From: a virus
Taxonomy: Duplodnaviria > Heunggongvirae > Uroviricota > Caudoviricetes
Length of the DNA: 8,265 nucleotides
Virus record (IMG/VR): IMGVR_UViG_2690316348_000005
Strand: one strand, 5' to 3'
How positions within the stretch are numbered: position 1 is the first letter of the stretch; the number at the start of each line of letters is the position of its first letter. Position numbers and translations under genes: made by a program. The notes beneath the pieces are model-generated. The model was not told the DNA's origin and made no database searches. It worked only from the letters and a program-made list of their open reading frames with translations. Positions 2,875 through 8,265 of the stretch are shown here, in pieces.

Positions 2875-3255
2875 ATGACCGAGCGCATAGAATTTGTTTT
2901 ACCTTACCCGCCGACGGTGAACACTTACTGGCGTCGTCGTGGCAGCACATATTTTGTATCAAAAGCCGGGGAGCGTTATCGCCGGGCAGTGGCGCTTATT
3001 GTTCGCCAGCAGCGGCTGAAATTAAGCCTGTCCGGAAGGTTGGCAATAAAAATTATTGCAGAACCACCGGATAAGCGCCGCCGTGACCTGGACAATATTC
3101 TGAAAGCGCCGCTGGATGCGCTGACGCATGCGGGGTTGCTAATGGACGATGAGCAGTTTGATGAAATCAATATCGTTCGTGCTCAGCCAGTATCTGGTGG
3201 ACGTCTGGGGGTGAAGATTTATCCCATAATGCTTGAAGGGCAGGTCAAAAAATGA
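2875..3255 (+). CDS. rusA: RusA-family Holliday junction resolvase, 126 aa
   Basis: Translation carries the RusA-like core ...PPDKRRRDLDNILKAPLDALTHAGLLMDDEQ... with conserved acidic residues, and the size matches RusA. Sits directly upstream of the Q-like gene, as in lambdoid nin regions. Confidence 0.88.
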   Translation: MTERIEFVLPYPPTVNTYWRRRGSTYFVSKAGERYRRAVALIVRQQRLKLSLSGRLAIKIIAEPPDKRRRDLDNILKAPLDALTHAGLLMDDEQFDEINIVRAQPVSGGRLGVKIYPIMLEGQVKK

Positions 3256-4073
3256 AACTGGAAGATTTACCGAAATACTACTCCCCAAAATCCCCCGGCC
3301 TGACTGATGCATCGGCCTCAACGTCGAAAGATGCGCTGAGTATCACTGATGTGATGGCCGCGCAGGGCATGACACAGAATCGGGCTGAGATGGGGGTTTC
3401 TGCGTTCCTTGGGAAAATGGGCATTAGTATGAATGACAGAGAGCGGGCAACAGAATTGCTGACAGAATATGCACTCAGTCGGTGTGATCGCGTGGCGGCG
3501 TTAAGAAAACTCCCGGCAGAAATAAAACCGGCAGTGATGCGTATTATGGCTTCGTATGCGTTTGAAGATTATGCCCGTAGCGCGGCGAGCAAAAAACAGT
3601 GCCCCTGCTGTCACGGAAAAAAATTTATTGAAAGCGAGGTTTTTACAAACAAGATCCAGTATCCGGATGGTAAGCCGCCGGTATGGGCAAAGTGTACGAA
3701 AGGTGTGTATCCGTCTTACTGGGAAGAATGGAAAAAAGTCAGGGAGGTGGTAAAAGTTGCCTGTCCGGAGTGTGGCGGAAAGGGTGAGGTTTCCACCGCC
3801 TGTAAGGATTGCCGTGGGCGTGGTGTCGCCATTCATCGTGAAGAGTCGGTAAAACGTGGTATGCCTGTTATCAGAGACTGCCAGCGTTGTGGTGGTCGTG
3901 GCTATGAAAGACTACCATCAACGGAGGCATTTAATGCTATATGCGAGGTGACAAACCAGATAACACGCGCGTCATGGGAAAAAACAGTTAAGAAATTTTA
4001 TGATGCGCTGGTGACCCGGTTTGATATTGAAGAAGCATGGGCTGAGCGGCAGTTAAAAAAGGTAACTAGGTAA
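3252..4073 (+). CDS. Putative late-gene antiterminator Q-like protein with four CxxCxGxG zinc-finger repeats, 273 aa
   Basis: ATG overlaps the rusA stop (ATGA). Contains CPCCHGKK, CPECGGKG, CKDCRGRG and CQRCGGRG repeats. Lies immediately upstream of a pR'-like promoter whose initial transcribed sequence is ACGATGGG. The Q assignment is by position and zinc motifs, not by a confirmed homology match. Confidence 0.6.
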   Translation: MKLEDLPKYYSPKSPGLTDASASTSKDALSITDVMAAQGMTQNRAEMGVSAFLGKMGISMNDRERATELLTEYALSRCDRVAALRKLPAEIKPAVMRIMASYAFEDYARSAASKKQCPCCHGKKFIESEVFTNKIQYPDGKPPVWAKCTKGVYPSYWEEWKKVREVVKVACPECGGKGEVSTACKDCRGRGVAIHREESVKRGMPVIRDCQRCGGRGYERLPSTEAFNAICEVTNQITRASWEKTVKKFYDALVTRFDIEEAWAERQLKKVTR

Positions 4074-4078
4074 CAAGG

Positions 4079-4114
4079 TTGATTTTTCCGGAATCTGTGG
4101 TAAATTCGTTATAA
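4079..4114 (+). promoter_or_regulatory. pR'-like late promoter with a likely qut region
   Basis: -35 TTGATT (4079..4084), 16-bp spacer, -10 TAAATT (4101..4106), then ACGATGGG. This closely resembles the lambda pR' -10 and initial transcribed sequence as I recall it. Confidence 0.6.
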
Positions 4115-4154
4115 CGATGGGCGTTTTATGCCTGACGTTAGAAGAGTTTCTACA

Positions 4155-4178
4155 ACCCGCCGCCGAGCGGGTTTTTTA
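4155..4178 (+). terminator. tR'-like intrinsic terminator, about 65 nt downstream of the putative late transcription start
   Basis: Stem CCCGC (4156..4160), loop CGCCGA, stem GCGGG (4167..4171), then TTTTTT (4172..4177). Confidence 0.65.
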
Positions 4179-4297
4179 TGACTGAAATCGCGTCAGTACA
4201 GTAAACGCGCTGGTGGCGGTGAATACCTGTCTTTCAGCTTGCTGGCTTTTTCGACAAGAGTTATTGGTGTGTCACGTTAACCGGAAAAGGAAAAGAC

Positions 4298-4645: not shown

Positions 4646-5704
4646 ATGCTTAATACTGTAAAAATATCCAGTTGTGAGTTAATCAACGCCGACTGCCTGG
4701 AATTTATCCGGTCGTTACCCGAAAATTCTGTTGACCTGATAGTCACGGACCCGCCGTACTTTAAAGTGAAGCCTGAGGGCTGGGATAACCAGTGGAAGGG
4801 CGACGATGATTACCTGAAGTGGCTGGACCAGTGTCTGGCGCAGTTCTGGCGGGTGCTGAAACCTGCCGGAAGTCTTTACCTGTTCTGTGGTCATCGCCTG
4901 GCATCTGATATCGAAATCATGATGCGTGAACGCTTCAGTGTGCTGAACCATATTATCTGGGCGAAGCCGTCCGGACGCTGGAACGGATGCAACAAGGAAA
5001 GCCTGCGGGCGTATTTCCCCGCCACAGAGCGCATTCTGTTCGCGGAACATTATCAGGGGCCGTATCGTCCGAAAGATGCCGGGTATGCGGCGAAGGGCAG
5101 TGCACTGAAACAGCATGTGATGGCCCCGCTGATTTCTTACTTTCGTGATGCGCGAGCTGCCCTGGGGATAACGGCAAAACAGATTGCAGATGCCACAGGA
5201 AAGAAAAACATGGTGTCGCACTGGTTCAGTGCCGGTCAGTGGCAGTTGCCGAATGAAAGCGATTATCTGAAATTACAGGCGCTGTTTGCCCGGGTGGCAG
5301 AAGAGAAGCATCGGCGTGGTGAACTGGAAAAGCTCCACCACCAGCTGGTGGATACGTATACCTCACTGAACCGGCAGTATGCGGAGCTGCTGAGTGAATA
5401 TAAACATCTGCGGCGGTATTTTGGCGTGACGGTGCAGGTGCCGTATACCGATGTGTGGACGCATAAACCGGTGCAGTTCTATCCCGGGAAACATCCGTGC
5501 GAAAAACCGGCAGAAATGCTGCAGCAGATAATCAGCGCTAGCAGTCGTCCGGGTGACCTGATTGCAGATTTTTTCATGGGGTTGGGTTCGACAGTGAAAG
5601 CGGCACTGGCGCTCGGGCGTCGTGCAATTGGCGTTGAGCTGGAGACTGAACGTTTTGAGCAGACGGTTCGGGAAGTACAGGATTTAGTCAGCCAGAACGG
5701 ATGA
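4646..5704 (+). CDS. Orphan beta-class DNA methyltransferase (N6-adenine/N4-cytosine family, probably N6-adenine), 352 aa
   Basis: Catalytic motif IV DPPY (LIVTDPPYF) lies N-terminal to the SAM-binding motif I FxGxG (DLIADFFMGLGST), which is the beta-class order. No adjacent restriction endonuclease candidate is visible. Confidence 0.88.
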   Translation: MLNTVKISSCELINADCLEFIRSLPENSVDLIVTDPPYFKVKPEGWDNQWKGDDDYLKWLDQCLAQFWRVLKPAGSLYLFCGHRLASDIEIMMRERFSVLNHIIWAKPSGRWNGCNKESLRAYFPATERILFAEHYQGPYRPKDAGYAAKGSALKQHVMAPLISYFRDARAALGITAKQIADATGKKNMVSHWFSAGQWQLPNESDYLKLQALFARVAEEKHRRGELEKLHHQLVDTYTSLNRQYAELLSEYKHLRRYFGVTVQVPYTDVWTHKPVQFYPGKHPCEKPAEMLQQIISASSRPGDLIADFFMGLGSTVKAALALGRRAIGVELETERFEQTVREVQDLVSQNG

Positions 5705-5744
5705 TATTGAAGAATTAATTACGCGTCGTTATTATGCGGCTCCC

Positions 5745-5820
5745 GGCCCTTTAGCTCAGTGGTGAGAGCGAGCGACTCATAATCGCCAGGTCGCTGGTTC
5801 AAATCCAGCAAGGGCCACCA
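5745..5820 (+). tRNA. ileZ: tRNA-Ile2-like, anticodon CAT (presumed lysidine-modified, reads AUA)
   Basis: Manual cloverleaf: 7-bp acceptor GGCCCTT/AAGGGCC, D-arm with GG, anticodon loop CTCATAA, T-loop TTCAAAT, encoded CCA. Overall resemblance to E. coli ileX. The Ile-versus-Met call rests on that resemblance. Confidence 0.8.
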
Positions 5821-5827
5821 TCACATA

Positions 5828-5904
5828 CCGCCATTAGCTCATCAGGAAAGAGCGCCAGCCTTCGAAGCTGGCTGCGCGGGGTTCAAGTCCCCGATGGCGG
5901 TCCA
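5828..5904 (+). tRNA. argN: tRNA-Arg, anticodon TCG
   Basis: Manual cloverleaf: acceptor CCGCCAT/ATGGCGG (C1-G72), anticodon stem CCAGC/GCTGG, loop CTTCGAA, T-loop TTCAAGT, encoded CCA. The gene symbol is by position in a 933W-like ileZ-argN-argO cluster and is tentative. Confidence 0.75.
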
Positions 5905-5917
5905 TTATCTGCATCAT

Positions 5918-5994
5918 GCGTTGTTAGCTCAGCCGGACAGAGCAATTGCCTTCTAAGCAATCGGTCACTGGTTCGAATCCAGTACAGCGCGCCA
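5918..5994 (+). tRNA. argO: tRNA-Arg, anticodon TCT (reads AGA)
   Basis: Manual cloverleaf: acceptor GCGTTGT/ACAGCGC with a U4-G69 wobble, anticodon stem ATTGC/GCAAT, loop CTTCTAA, T-loop TTCGAAT, encoded CCA. The gene symbol is by position and is tentative. Confidence 0.8.
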
Positions 5995-6458: not shown

Positions 6459-6650
6459 ATACATATCTGGATTATCACCTGTTACGGTAAAAAGTGATTG
6501 CTTACTGTTTTTGTGAATGGCATTGCAGCAGCCGGATAATGTCAGTGCTGGCTGACGGTGTGCTGGTGGCGGGTGTGGTGGTTGTTGCTTTCCCGTTGCT
6601 GAAAAAGAAAACGCCAGACTGTTAGCCGGGTATCAGTTAGCGGGAGAAAT

Positions 6651-6855
6651 TTTTAAATACTTCACAATTCAGGCGGTTGACTGTTGTCTGGTTTGCGGGG
6701 AGTTTGTTAAAAGAAACTGGCATGGTGAATCCCCCTGTGCGGAGGGGCAATCAGCGAGTAGGTATATGGGATAATCGCGGATTCAGGTGCTGGTACTGAA
6801 TTCACCGGGAGGCACCCGGCACCATGCAATGGCACATAGCGCCACTCTCCAGCCC
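6651..6855 (+). repeat. Direct repeat B, copy 1 (about 205 bp), GC-rich and structured; truncated just before the terminator that ends copy 2
   Basis: Matches 7215..7419, identical over the last ~165 bp with about 6 mismatches in the first ~40 bp. Contains hairpins such as CCCCCTGTGCGGAGGGG. Confidence 0.85.
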
Positions 6856-6928
6856 AAAGTACAGGATTTAGTCAGCCAGAACGGATGATATTGAAGAATT
6901 AATTACGCGTCGTTATTATGCGGCTCCC

Positions 6929-7004
6929 GGCCCTTTAGCTCAGTGGTGAGAGCGAGCGACTCATAATCGCCAGGTCGCTGGTTCAAATCCAGCAAGGGCC
7001 ACCA
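6929..7004 (+). tRNA. ileZ: tRNA-Ile2-like, anticodon CAT, second copy
   Basis: Identical to 5745..5820. Confidence 0.8.
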
Positions 7005-7011
7005 TCACATA

Positions 7012-7088
7012 CCGCCATTAGCTCATCAGGAAAGAGCGCCAGCCTTCGAAGCTGGCTGCGCGGGGTTCAAGTCCCCGATGGCGGTCCA
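7012..7088 (+). tRNA. argN: tRNA-Arg, anticodon TCG, second copy
   Basis: Identical to 5828..5904. Confidence 0.75.
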
Positions 7089-7101
7089 TTATCTGCATCA
7101 T

Positions 7102-7178
7102 GCGTTGTTAGCTCAGCCGGACAGAGCAATTGCCTTCTAAGCAATCGGTCACTGGTTCGAATCCAGTACAACGCGCCA
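7102..7178 (+). tRNA. argO: tRNA-Arg, anticodon TCT, second copy with a Watson-Crick U4-A69 pair
   Basis: Identical to 5918..5994 except G69 to A (position 7171), which converts the U4-G69 wobble into U-A. Confidence 0.8.
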
Positions 7179-7192
7179 CACTTATTTTCCCT

Positions 7193-7218
7193 GGCTCGCT
7201 TTTGCGGGCCTTTTTTTT
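7193..7218 (+). terminator. Intrinsic terminator immediately after the second tRNA cluster
   Basis: Stem GGCTCGC / GCGGGCC (one G-U pair), loop TTTT, followed by TTTTTTTT (7211..7218). There is no equivalent after the first tRNA cluster. Confidence 0.7.
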
Positions 7219-7419
7219 AAATGTCTCACAATTCAGACGGTTGACAGTTGTCTGTTTTGCGGGGAGTTTGTTAAAAGAAACTGGCATGGTGAATCCCCCT
7301 GTGCGGAGGGGCAATCAGCGAGTAGGTATATGGGATAATCGCGGATTCAGGTGCTGGTACTGAATTCACCGGGAGGCACCCGGCACCATGCAATGGCACA
7401 TAGCGCCACTCTCCAGCCC
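7215..7419 (+). repeat. Direct repeat B, copy 2 (about 205 bp)
   Basis: See copy 1. This copy begins with a perfect TTGACA (7242..7247) and is followed by a terminator. Confidence 0.85.
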
Positions 7420-7440
7420 CTCTCCGGAGGGGCTGTTTAT
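7415..7440 (+). terminator. Intrinsic terminator at the boundary between repeat B copy 2 and the AT-rich island
   Basis: Stem AGCCCCTC (7415..7422), loop TCCG, stem GAGGGGCT (7427..7434), followed by GTTTATATTGATTTT. Confidence 0.65.
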
Positions 7441-7469
7441 ATTGATTTTGTCAGATGTGAGTAAACTCC

Positions 7470-7805
7470 TTATGGACTTTGTTGTTTTAGTCCATAAGGA
7501 CATATTTGCAGAGTGCAACGGTTATTAAAGCATTCATTCAATACGTTATCTGTATTTGTAGGGCATTCCTGGCTATTTTTGATTGAATTCCAGAATGTTT
7601 TATTGAATGGTACTACGTTGTAAATGGTTACAGGTAGCACTTTGTTATTGAGCATGATGCCTGTGTGAGTCAGTGTAAATATACTTTCAGGAGGTAAGAA
7701 AGCATCCGATTGATACCAGATTATTAATTTTATTTTACTCCATATGACTGAAAAAGATATTCCGCATGATGGCTGGATAACTGTATCAATCACAATCCAC
7801 TTCAT
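7470..7805 (-). CDS. Hypothetical protein, 111 aa, in the AT-rich island; the only credible minus-strand gene in the window
   Basis: ATG (complement of 7803..7805) preceded on the minus strand by AAGGAAA with 6-nt spacing. Candidate promoter TTTACA-15-TATACT further upstream on the minus strand. The 3' end overlaps a 12-bp perfect hairpin (7467..7500). No family recognised. Confidence 0.4.
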
Positions 7806-8065
7806 TTAGTTTCCTTGTTTATGCCTTGCTGGTGATGTTCTGAAAAGTATAAATGATATTTTTGAATGTAAACCATAGAGCAGAATTATTTTTCTGATGT
7901 TGTTTATTGTTTATTTAAATGCAGGGTGGTTTATATCTCGTCTTGTAGTTTATCCATGCATATCTGCTTGATAATCAGGTTTTTATTTAAGGTATGGTTT
8001 TGTGTTTTTTCTGTATTACATGTCAGGTATTTTAAAGAATTATTTTTCAGATGGTGGAAAGAACC

Positions 8066-8239
8066 ATGGCATTTAAACACTATGATGTTGTCAGGGCGGC
8101 GCCGCCGTCAGATCTTGCGGAAAAGCTGACACATAAACTGAAAGAGGGCTGGCAGCCGTTTGGTAGTCCGGTGGCCATAACCCCTTATACCCTGAGGTGT
8201 ACTGGCAATAGCGGACACTACCATTTGTTCTTTTTTTAA
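8066..8239 (+). CDS. Small hypothetical protein, 57 aa (62 aa from the alternative ATG at 8051); possibly DUF1737-like
   Basis: ORF with a GGTGGA-like ribosome-binding site before ATG 8066. The EGWQPFG motif reminds me of small prophage proteins found upstream of lysis genes, but this is a weak recollection. The last 47 nt of the CDS lie inside the right terminal inverted repeat. Confidence 0.4.
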   Translation: MAFKHYDVVRAAPPSDLAEKLTHKLKEGWQPFGSPVAITPYTLRCTGNSGHYHLFFF

Positions 8240-8265
8240 GCAGCCATCTGATGATATTTTTCCCT
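8193..8265. repeat. Right arm of the 73-bp perfect terminal inverted repeat
   Basis: Reverse complement equals 1..73 exactly. Contains the C-terminal codons and 3' flank of the 8066..8239 ORF. Confidence 0.9.

Follow-up and report, generated by a model that had tools for sequence, protein, structure and literature searches.

What is a GC-rich element of about 205 bp that stands twice in one short stretch of viral DNA, and what might it do for the prophage that carries it? The question is raised by the 8,265-nt IMG/VR record IMGVR_UViG_2690316348_000005 (the whole stretch is called the window below), for which an initial annotation had proposed a duplicated, structured element at positions 6651-6855 (copy 1) and 7215-7419 (copy 2), a candidate non-coding RNA or regulatory module. 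A cmscan search against Rfam, the check suggested at the time, placed both copies in the curated family RF02076 ('Gammaproteobacterial sRNA STnc100') of small RNAs (sRNAs), far over its curated gathering score of 47 bits. Copy 2 matched at 7255-7444 with 133.6 bits (E = 4.5e-30) over the complete model (1-206/206), and copy 1 at 6691-6842 with 102.0 bits, the last 46 model positions (about 161-206, the terminator) being missing. We regard it as near certain that both are STnc100 genes, known as EcOnc27 in Escherichia coli O157 Sakai and as sRNA103 in EDL933. The proposal of a non-coding RNA or regulatory module is thereby supported. The element is already known and not new; copy 2 is intact and copy 1 lacks the terminator, while a covariance model of the core alone (R1) gave the core of copy 1 (6714-6831) 99.6 bits, the same as that of copy 2. 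The detection mainly confirms that a sequence-only scan can pick out genuine non-coding genes.

Among 5,426 complete E. coli genomes, 2,786 hold the 168-nt RNA-coding part of copy 2 in near-identical form (1,929 with an identity of at least 99%), with up to 11 STnc100 places per genome, and 372 phage records, mostly of Shiga toxin (Stx) phages, hold the gene. Near-identical copies in about half of the complete E. coli genomes therefore leave no room for novelty of the element. One genome per species was also scanned for the two most conserved blocks, which yielded 60 loci from Escherichia, Shigella, Klebsiella, Kosakonia, Citrobacter, Enterobacter, Leclercia, Phytobacter, Superficieibacter, Raoultella, Erwinia and others; all 18 loci that were checked are STnc100 by Rfam, and the covariance model of the core finds 82 copies in the 60 loci, from more than 20 enterobacterial genera.

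STnc100 is among the most abundant annotated sRNA families (PMC9029176). It is present in most Stx phages and adjoins the Shiga-toxin genes, 75 nt downstream of stx2B in Stx2 phages (PMC12370729), and it overlaps EcOnc27 of O157 Sakai, the same as sRNA103 of EDL933, which was cross-linked to Hfq (PMC12711010, PMC7873438, PMC4104026) and detected by Hfq cross-linking and analysis of cDNA (CRAC; PMC4104026, PMC7873438). Eleven copies of EDL933 gave signal in RNA sequencing (RNA-seq) and one was positive in a northern blot (PMC5331693), and in O157 genomes the features that best predicted haemolytic uraemic syndrome were reported to be sequence features overlapping STnc100 (PMC12711010). No mechanism has been established for STnc100 in the literature. 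Handles on the role of the RNA are offered by a covarying pseudoknot, by a promoter that would start transcription at the closing helix P1, by a transcription unit distinct from the late promoter-terminator unit pR'-tR', and by a chromosomal leader of a pectin-utilisation operon.

The minimum-free-energy fold of copy 2 is exactly the structure of the STnc100 family. Together with covariation it delimits a structured core of 108 nt (7284-7391), closed by P1 (7284-7291/7384-7391, corresponding to 6720-6727/6820-6827 in copy 1) and containing P2 (7296-7300/7307-7311, CCCCU..AGGGG with the loop GUGCGG), P3 (7343-7350/7360-7367) and P4 (7369-7373/7379-7383, CCGGG-AGGCA-CCCGG with the loop AGGCA), all on the plus strand. 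The stable hairpins quoted in the initial annotation do exist: these are P2 (7296-7311) and P4 (7369-7383), the best-conserved pair of helices in the family. The fold is supported by covariation across homologues (82 copies, 78 distinct sequences), where the four helices had 89.7% of cells paired against 80.2% after shuffling (0 of 500 shuffles as high), figures which come from an alignment fitted to the structure and from a shuffling procedure that approximates the formal R-scape test. Sliding the partner column by 1-3 positions reduced the pairing to 52% or less. Compensatory changes were seen in 6 of 8 pairs of P1 and in all 8 pairs of P3; P2 and P4 are nearly invariant in sequence, and their rare changes are compensated. 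The alignment used was made with the covariance model (A2) and replaced a MAFFT alignment (A1), which misregistered P3 and the pseudoknot. The predicted fold of copy 1 is perturbed by the foreign sequence at its 3' side.

The pseudoknot, recognised by covariation, joins AUCAGCG (7314-7320), just 3' of P2, with UGCUGGU (7352-7358) in the loop of P3. When the loops of 71 distinct combinations were permuted among sequences, with the 5-8 nt just 3' of P2 taken as the element, native pairing averaged 6.11 contiguous pairs, a value attained in none of 2,000 permutations, where the mean was 4.38 +/- 0.14. Compensatory variants include CAGC/GCUG, CUGG/CCAG, AAGCCA/UGGCUU, GUCGA/UCGAC and others. Neither the pseudoknot nor the promoter register described below is contained in the structure line of the Rfam model used by cmscan or described in the STnc100 literature that we consulted. 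Several unpaired positions, namely UGGUGAAUCCCC, the GCGG of the P2 loop, the GCG before P3 and CACCGGGAGGCACCCGGCACC, are near-invariant across genera, also in the 22 copies that were not picked by the search pattern. Of all the features described here, only this conservation of the core merits further study. Loops of the GGA type bound by CsrA were considered and dropped, as the P2 loop does not conserve its GGA (GCGGA/GCGGU/GCGGC).

A candidate promoter region of copy 2 can be read from the sequence at 7241-7277 (plus strand), with two options for its boxes. The TTGACA at 7241-7246, taken earlier for a perfect -35 element of copy 2, is indeed present, but is probably not a working -35, as the -10 found after a 17-nt spacer, GAGTTT (7264-7269), is poor; the equivalent in copy 1 is TTGACT (6677-6682). 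The other option combines TTGTCT (7248-7253), an 18-nt spacer and TAAAAG (7272-7277) preceded by TG at 7269-7270, that is, an extended -10 (TGtTAAAAG, 7269-7277), and predicts a start at G7284. We infer that copy 2 starts at about G7284 from TTGTCT/TAAAAG because the 5' end of PasD1, an sRNA of enteropathogenic E. coli (EPEC), mapped by RNA-seq and published as NC_011601:1060260, coincides exactly with the opening G of P1. At least 8 of 12 matches to the sigma-70 consensus directly upstream of the core were found in 37 of 58 homologues compared with 14% at control positions, and at least 9 of 12 in 28% compared with 2.3%; in homologues the end of the -10 is most often found 7 nt ahead of UGGUG.

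Between the core and the terminator of copy 2 lies a single-stranded linker of 22 nt (7392-7413, plus strand, AAUGGCACAUAGCGCCACUCUC), which continues into the C/U-rich CAGCCCCUCUCC of the terminator 5' arm and is the variable part of the STnc100 family; the linker, extended to 7425, is a candidate seed region. The intrinsic terminator (7414-7443, plus strand) consists of a stem (7414-7422/7427-7435) with the loop UCCG and the tail UUUAUAUU. The claim that copy 2 ends at such a terminator holds as to its presence, though most of it lies past the end coordinate 7419 given for the element, since only the first 6 nt of the 5' arm of its stem belong to the repeat. Copy 2 has the terminator, and copy 1 is cut within the stem at 6855. 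Most intact family members have an intrinsic terminator 25-60 nt after P1. Within the family, one subfamily from several genera (L003, L005, L027, L035, L036, L045 and L060) carries the near-identical terminator CCUGUUCGUCCGAGCAGG, and several of its members, as well as L033, share the linker motif (U)ACCUGAU(A/U)U just upstream of the terminator, which could be a conserved seed distinct from those of the E. coli alleles.

How two copies came to stand in one window was approached by a repeat search and a base-by-base comparison. The repeat is 219 nt long (6637-6855 and 7201-7419, 95% identity), and its 12 mismatches all fall within 6639-6691, therefore 6692-6855 and 7256-7419 are identical over 164 nt. 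The limits proposed for the element hold as well, 6651-6855 and 7215-7419 differing at 6 positions (97% identity), and a repeat of this kind cannot be a chance match. The GC content is 0.55-0.56. Copy 1 comprises the upstream region and the complete core and stops 6 nt into the terminator stem; as had been noted, it is fused to a duplicated methyltransferase fragment, the novel joint (6855-6857) reading CCAGCCC, a single A at 6856, then AAGTACAGG, with no homology at the breakpoint and one filler base. Beyond the joint, 6857-7156 repeats 5673-5972 (the methylase 3' end and tRNAs) over 300 nt with 100% identity. The two tRNA-Arg(TCT) copies differ in one base of the 3' acceptor strand (G at 5979, A at 7163), giving a U-G and a U-A pair, respectively, and this is the first mismatch beyond the 300-nt identical block; hence the arrays derive from distinct prophage variants rather than from a simple tandem duplication of recent date.

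We consider it likely that the duplication results from real illegitimate recombination between two prophage variants. That it is instead an artefact, the source having one STnc100 copy and the order A-B-C-A'-C' being due to chimeric reads or a mis-resolved short-read repeat, seems unlikely to us. The joint as a single piece is absent from the 5,426 complete E. coli genomes, from IMG/VR and from the metagenome contigs of the Joint Genome Institute (JGI); the closest relatives (Shigella sonnei, AREA_499) are single-copy, the contig ends in copies of an insertion sequence (IS), as is typical of a short-read draft, and exact repeats of 300 nt and 164 nt are difficult for short-read assemblies. 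Against this, the joint has no shared sequence at its breakpoint, and a k-mer graph needs spanning reads to make such a joint, which therefore must exist in the reads. The A-B-C and A'-C' arrangements, moreover, each exist in real genomes, the order methylase-tRNAs-B-STnc100 in e.g. AREA_499 and S. sonnei and the order methylase-tRNAs-terminator-STnc100 in 23 genomes, so that recombination between two resident prophages is plausible; the window strings both known arrangements together via the copy 1 joint. Tandem STnc100 copies also occur naturally elsewhere. In E. albertii two stand downstream of the same tRNA array at a distance of 466 nt, and in Superficieibacter and Leclercia 3-5 copies form an array; in these genera the loci L011, L012, L022, L036, L050, L051 and L030 hold natural tandem arrays in which 2-5 diverged units each have flanks of their own.

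As to function, the reading that we favour, and hold to be somewhat more probable than its negation, is that of a trans-acting Hfq-binding sRNA expressed in the lysogen, with the seed in the 3' linker and a terminator that insulates the lysis genes. Constitutive transcription in the lysogen from its own sigma-70 promoter would run from about G7284 to about 7443 and yield an RNA of about 160 nt. The RNA would bind Hfq and act in trans via the variable C/U-rich 3' linker, as RIL-seq (the ligation and sequencing of interacting RNAs) indicates for PasD, and the invariant core may serve as a stabilising or factor-binding scaffold. The terminator would stop transcripts not modified by Q (those from the tRNA, moron and own promoters) before the lysis genes, and Q-modified polymerase would read through it. 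Copy 1 has kept its promoter region and core and would have lost its terminator by illegitimate recombination; transcripts without this terminator would run through the second tRNA array to the terminator at 7193-7210, which makes a normal sRNA unlikely, and copy 1 is probably not a normal sRNA gene.

Among related sRNAs, PasD1 and PasD2 of EPEC E2348/69 (= EcOnc13) resemble the window element in the layout of core, linker and terminator and in the 5' end at GCAUGGUGAAUCC. According to a 2026 preprint by Zhu, Shabalina and Storz, PasD shares an ancestor with STnc100 (bioRxiv 10.64898/2026.05.13.724894). PasD stability is Hfq-dependent, and RIL-seq chimeras as well as a predicted target-binding motif fall in the 3' 50 nt of PasD1/2 (PMC8550237). 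PasD1 in EPEC prophage PP4 takes the same position as STnc100 (Q ... DUF3927 - PasD1 - holin). The PasD core, in contrast, is degenerate, P2 being CCUCCUUGGAGGGG and P4 truncated, and PasD1 reaches 26.5 bits with model R1 compared with 99.6 bits for the window. The PasD tail, with the seed UGUGAG and the terminator GGCUGCGCAUGGCGCGGCC, is absent from the window, where the tail is AAUGGCACAUAGCGCCACUCUCCAGCCCCUCUCCGGAGGGGCUG; with this tail and a canonical core of 99.6 bits the window element was not assigned to the PasD type.

Several observations weigh against the favoured reading. Both -10 candidates of copy 2 are weak (GAGTTT, and TAAAAG without the final T), the terminator has an interrupted U-tail (UUUAUAUU), and unpaired core positions that are nearly invariant (AAUC, the GCGG loop, the AGGCA loop) are not needed by an ordinary base-pairing sRNA. 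The transcript, its 5' end and its Hfq binding are attributed to this locus by analogy with homologues. The literature holds no validated direct target for any STnc100, and overexpression of sRNA103 raised the fimZ and espA transcripts by an unknown route (PMC12711010, PMC7873438). Finally, copies in the leader of a kdgM-pectate lyase operon, found in about 19 genomes, look cis-regulatory.

These latter copies bring up the possibility, on the whole a doubtful one, of a cis-acting, riboswitch-like leader, in which a small molecule or protein would bind the core as its aptamer and so set how often the downstream hairpin or terminator is read through into the genes that follow (holin/endolysin, nanS-p esterase or kdgM-pel), the 'sRNA' of the lysogen then being a terminated leader. 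The core has the look of an aptamer, with covarying helices around invariant junction and loop nucleotides and a pseudoknot, and the 3' part varies in the manner of an expression platform. In many loci genes on the same strand come next within 100-450 nt; these are holin and endolysin in several prophages and a KdgM porin with pectate lyase in 16 loci, in Klebsiella with no promoter seen between core and gene. Outside prophages, the core was met in the Klebsiella oxytoca group, Kosakonia, Enterobacter and Citrobacter amalonaticus, where it lies in the leader of a chromosomal operon of a KdgM-family porin (PF06178) and a periplasmic pectate lyase (PF06917). There it ends 83-225 nt before the start codon, with a conserved hairpin in between, and the loci (L018 1748-2073, L009 2864-3297 and 14 others) adjoin a divergent gene for a LuxR-family regulator. 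These leaders have a possible anti-Shine-Dalgarno sequence (CCUUU) before the start codon and a conserved upstream block, TCTCAAAACATCATTTCATTTTGTGTAAAAGT, which we take to resemble a KdgR-type operator. Together, the kdgM leaders, the invariant loops and the pseudoknot leave a low probability for a riboswitch-like or protein-binding reading.

On the other side, the next gene is convergent in the window (the iraM/PmrD-like gene, 7470-7805) and at many E. coli copies, and a convergent anti-sRNA follows in Sakai (PMC4104026). No conserved alternative antiterminator pairing was found: pairing of the P2 3' arm (GGAGGGGC) with the terminator 5' arm (GCCCCUCU) was tried and rejected, being, on our reading, confined to the E. 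coli allele and not conserved in other lineages. Q-modified polymerase ignores terminators in lytic growth, PasD shows trans interactions, and no ligand is known. The broader proposal, that the STnc100 core is a widespread enterobacterial aptamer for a metabolite or a host or phage protein, gating read-through or RNA fate ahead of lysis genes of prophages, nanS-p esterase genes and the chromosomal kdgM-pectate lyase operon, strikes us as similarly improbable; the literature consulted nowhere describes the core as an aptamer.

Equally little credit can be given to the view that the element is mainly an insulator at the level of DNA and transcription, the terminator shielding the lysis genes from moron and tRNA read-through and the RNA being a by-product. 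It agrees with the consistent placement immediately upstream of the lysis cassettes and on the downstream side of the sites where morons insert (also PMC4104026) and with the terminator present in most intact copies. A terminator alone, though, leaves unaccounted for a 108-nt covarying structure with invariant loops kept in more than 20 genera, a dedicated promoter, the chromosomal kdgM-linked copies and the Hfq association of homologues (PMC4104026).

It is very improbable that the element is the pR'-tR' late leader, a '6S-like' transcript analogous to StxS on which Q acts. What would suit such a leader is that the element lies between Q and the lysis genes, that it possesses both promoter and terminator, and that its distance from Q is just 180-530 nt in several prophages outside E. 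coli. Yet the window has a separate lambda-type pR'-tR' unit directly after Q (4079-4180, plus strand), composed of TTGATT (4079-4084), TAAATT (4101-4106), the AACGAT-GGG pause element (4113-4121) and tR' (4154-4173) with a T run. These motifs were identified by their resemblance to the lambda pR' sequence, AACGAT-GGG resembling the sigma-70-dependent pause element of lambda. Six loci of other genera with a Q of family PF03589 (L003, L005, L017, L029, L036 and L047) likewise have a lambda-like pR'/AACGAT-GGG/tR' between Q and STnc100, arranged as a short tR', then 100-150 nt, then promoter, STnc100 and terminator. The same RNA follows three unrelated Q families, the Q genes of PF06323 and PF06530 also being followed by STnc100 with its own promoter-like site and then by holin and endolysin, which come next wherever downstream open reading frames (ORFs) were checked in the PF03589-Q loci. 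STnc100 of Stx2 phages, too, lies downstream of stx2B (PMC12370729, PMC12711010), itself downstream of pR'. With a separate pR'-tR' unit upstream, the late leader of Q was rejected as the identity of STnc100. The gene stands downstream of Q, pR'-tR' and the moron genes (here the methylase and three tRNAs, stx in Stx phages), and is a second, self-contained transcription unit of the late operon, in the same direction and just before the lysis cassette. The lambda 6S/StxS RNA is reported (Sy et al. 2020; PMC7873438) to be a short constitutive late-region RNA of lysogens with a terminator that Q-modified polymerase overrides, and StxS reportedly binds Hfq. It differs in being a separate unit, which in the window is pR'-tR' (4079-4180), 3.1 kb upstream, and has no sequence or structure similarity to STnc100, which for its part lacks a Q-binding or pause element.

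Hardly credible at all is a small protein, such as MVNPPVRRGNQRVGIWDNRGFRCWY from the ATG at 7286 or 42-aa minus-strand ORFs: the conserved A/GTG-GTG-AAT-CCC can be read as M/V-V-N-P-P, 'hypothetical protein' calls of the Prokaryotic Genome Annotation Pipeline (PGAP) lie over the element and ribosome footprints are reported on some EDL933 copies (PMC5331693), but the only frame that starts in conserved sequence (NTG-GTG-AAT-CCC) stops anywhere between codons 5 and 37 in 70 distinct homologues, core lengths are distributed over every class modulo 3 (34/25/19), no codon position of the conserved block varies and changes are compensated across helices, and there is no Shine-Dalgarno sequence, the predicted RNA start being 2 nt before the ATG. 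Coding potential was rejected for want of a conserved frame, in line with the earlier view that neither copy contains a convincing ORF and that the ORFs at 7130-7363 and 7108-7314 look spurious; both overlap the tRNA-Arg at 7102-7178 and are indeed spurious. RefSeq carries PGAP 'hypothetical protein' or pseudogene coding sequences over STnc100 homologues of 7278-7445 (H109-H113; L001 8038-8163), which are probably spurious annotations of the non-coding gene.

Among known systems, STnc100/EcOnc27/sRNA103 agrees with copy 2 in full-model sequence and structure, late-region position, orientation and terminator, and nothing essential differs, copy 1 alone lacking the terminator (model positions ~161-206). 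The window copy follows the tRNA array which in Stx2 phages precedes stx, where STnc100 stands 75 nt after stx2B (PMC12370729). The prophage of the window has no stx and no convergent anti-sRNA, the place that the latter has in O157 prophages being taken by the convergent iraM/PmrD-like gene. AsxR and AgvB (RF02703/RF02702) belong to the same moron-site region and form convergent 'dyads' with STnc100-type genes in Sakai (PMC4104026, PMC7873438); their length is 51-60 nt, their strand the opposite one and their sequence unrelated to that of STnc100, and cmscan found no match to either family in the window at E <= 1. IpeX, the porin 3' untranslated-region RNA of DLP12/PA-2, was considered because STnc100 sits where IpeX sits relative to a moron, and was rejected, as the nmpC region of K-12 prophage DLP12 with its downstream untranslated region (L062) matched nothing in Rfam at E <= 0.01 and was not matched by R1 at E <= 0.001. 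The location of ipeX downstream of nmpC/lc is that reported by Castillo-Keller et al. 2006.

Taken as a whole, the window represents the late regulatory region of an E. coli/Shigella-type lambdoid prophage that is defective, and comprises Q, pR'-tR', methylase, tRNAs, STnc100, an iraM-like gene and an IS-cut DUF1737 gene. A 352-aa ORF (1816-2874) and a 126-aa ORF (2875-3255) take the positions where homologous loci carry the DUF968 and RusA genes, and are followed by the antiterminator Q (3252-4073, 273 aa; PF03589, E = 1.6e-53). After the pR'-tR' unit comes another 352-aa ORF (4646-5704), the homologue of which in locus L001 is annotated as a DNA methyltransferase, and then an array of tRNA-Ile(CAT), tRNA-Arg(TCG) and tRNA-Arg(TCT) at 5745-5994 (ARAGORN and RefSeq homologue); the CAT tRNA is called 'Met' by ARAGORN, and its homologue is tRNA-Ile in RefSeq. 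A 117-aa ORF lies between this array and a 43-aa ORF (6494-6625), the counterpart of the DUF3927 gene in L001 and L066, after which STnc100 copy 1 follows. Next come the second methylase 3' end, a tRNA promoter-like site (TTGAAG-17-TATTAT, 6891-6919) and the second tRNA-Ile(CAT)/Arg(TCG)/Arg(TCT) array (6857-7178, plus strand), closed by an intrinsic terminator (7193-7217, plus strand, GGCTCGCTTTTGCGGGCC then T8) immediately before copy 2.

Downstream of copy 2, and convergent on it, stands the iraM/PmrD-like gene (7470-7805, minus strand, a 111-aa ORF), whose product had no Pfam match in our own scan; its homologue is the anti-adapter protein IraM in RefSeq, with a match to the PmrD family (PF11183) on record. 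The DUF1737 gene (8051-8239) is cut by an insertion sequence. The ends of the window, 1-73 and 8193-8265, are exact inverted copies of 73 nt and are the termini of an IS3-family element, the homologous loci having HTH_Tnp_1 and rve ORFs; the contig is therefore bounded by two inverted IS copies and the lysis cassette is lost. A fold-back or assembly artefact at the window ends was rejected, as the IS3-family termini cut DUF1737 exactly as in S. sonnei: the truncated 62-aa protein and the IS junction are identical in S. sonnei chromosomes (Ss046 and relatives), and 7214-8265 shares 99.4% identity with Ss046. Near the other end, a hok/sok toxin-antitoxin RNA module (913-1088; 112.4 bits for Rfam sok) precedes an isrK-like match that is weak and below threshold (1247-1328; 25.7 bits against a gathering score of 50), an order which recalls the isrK-anrP-antQ arrangement upstream of Q in Gifsy-1.

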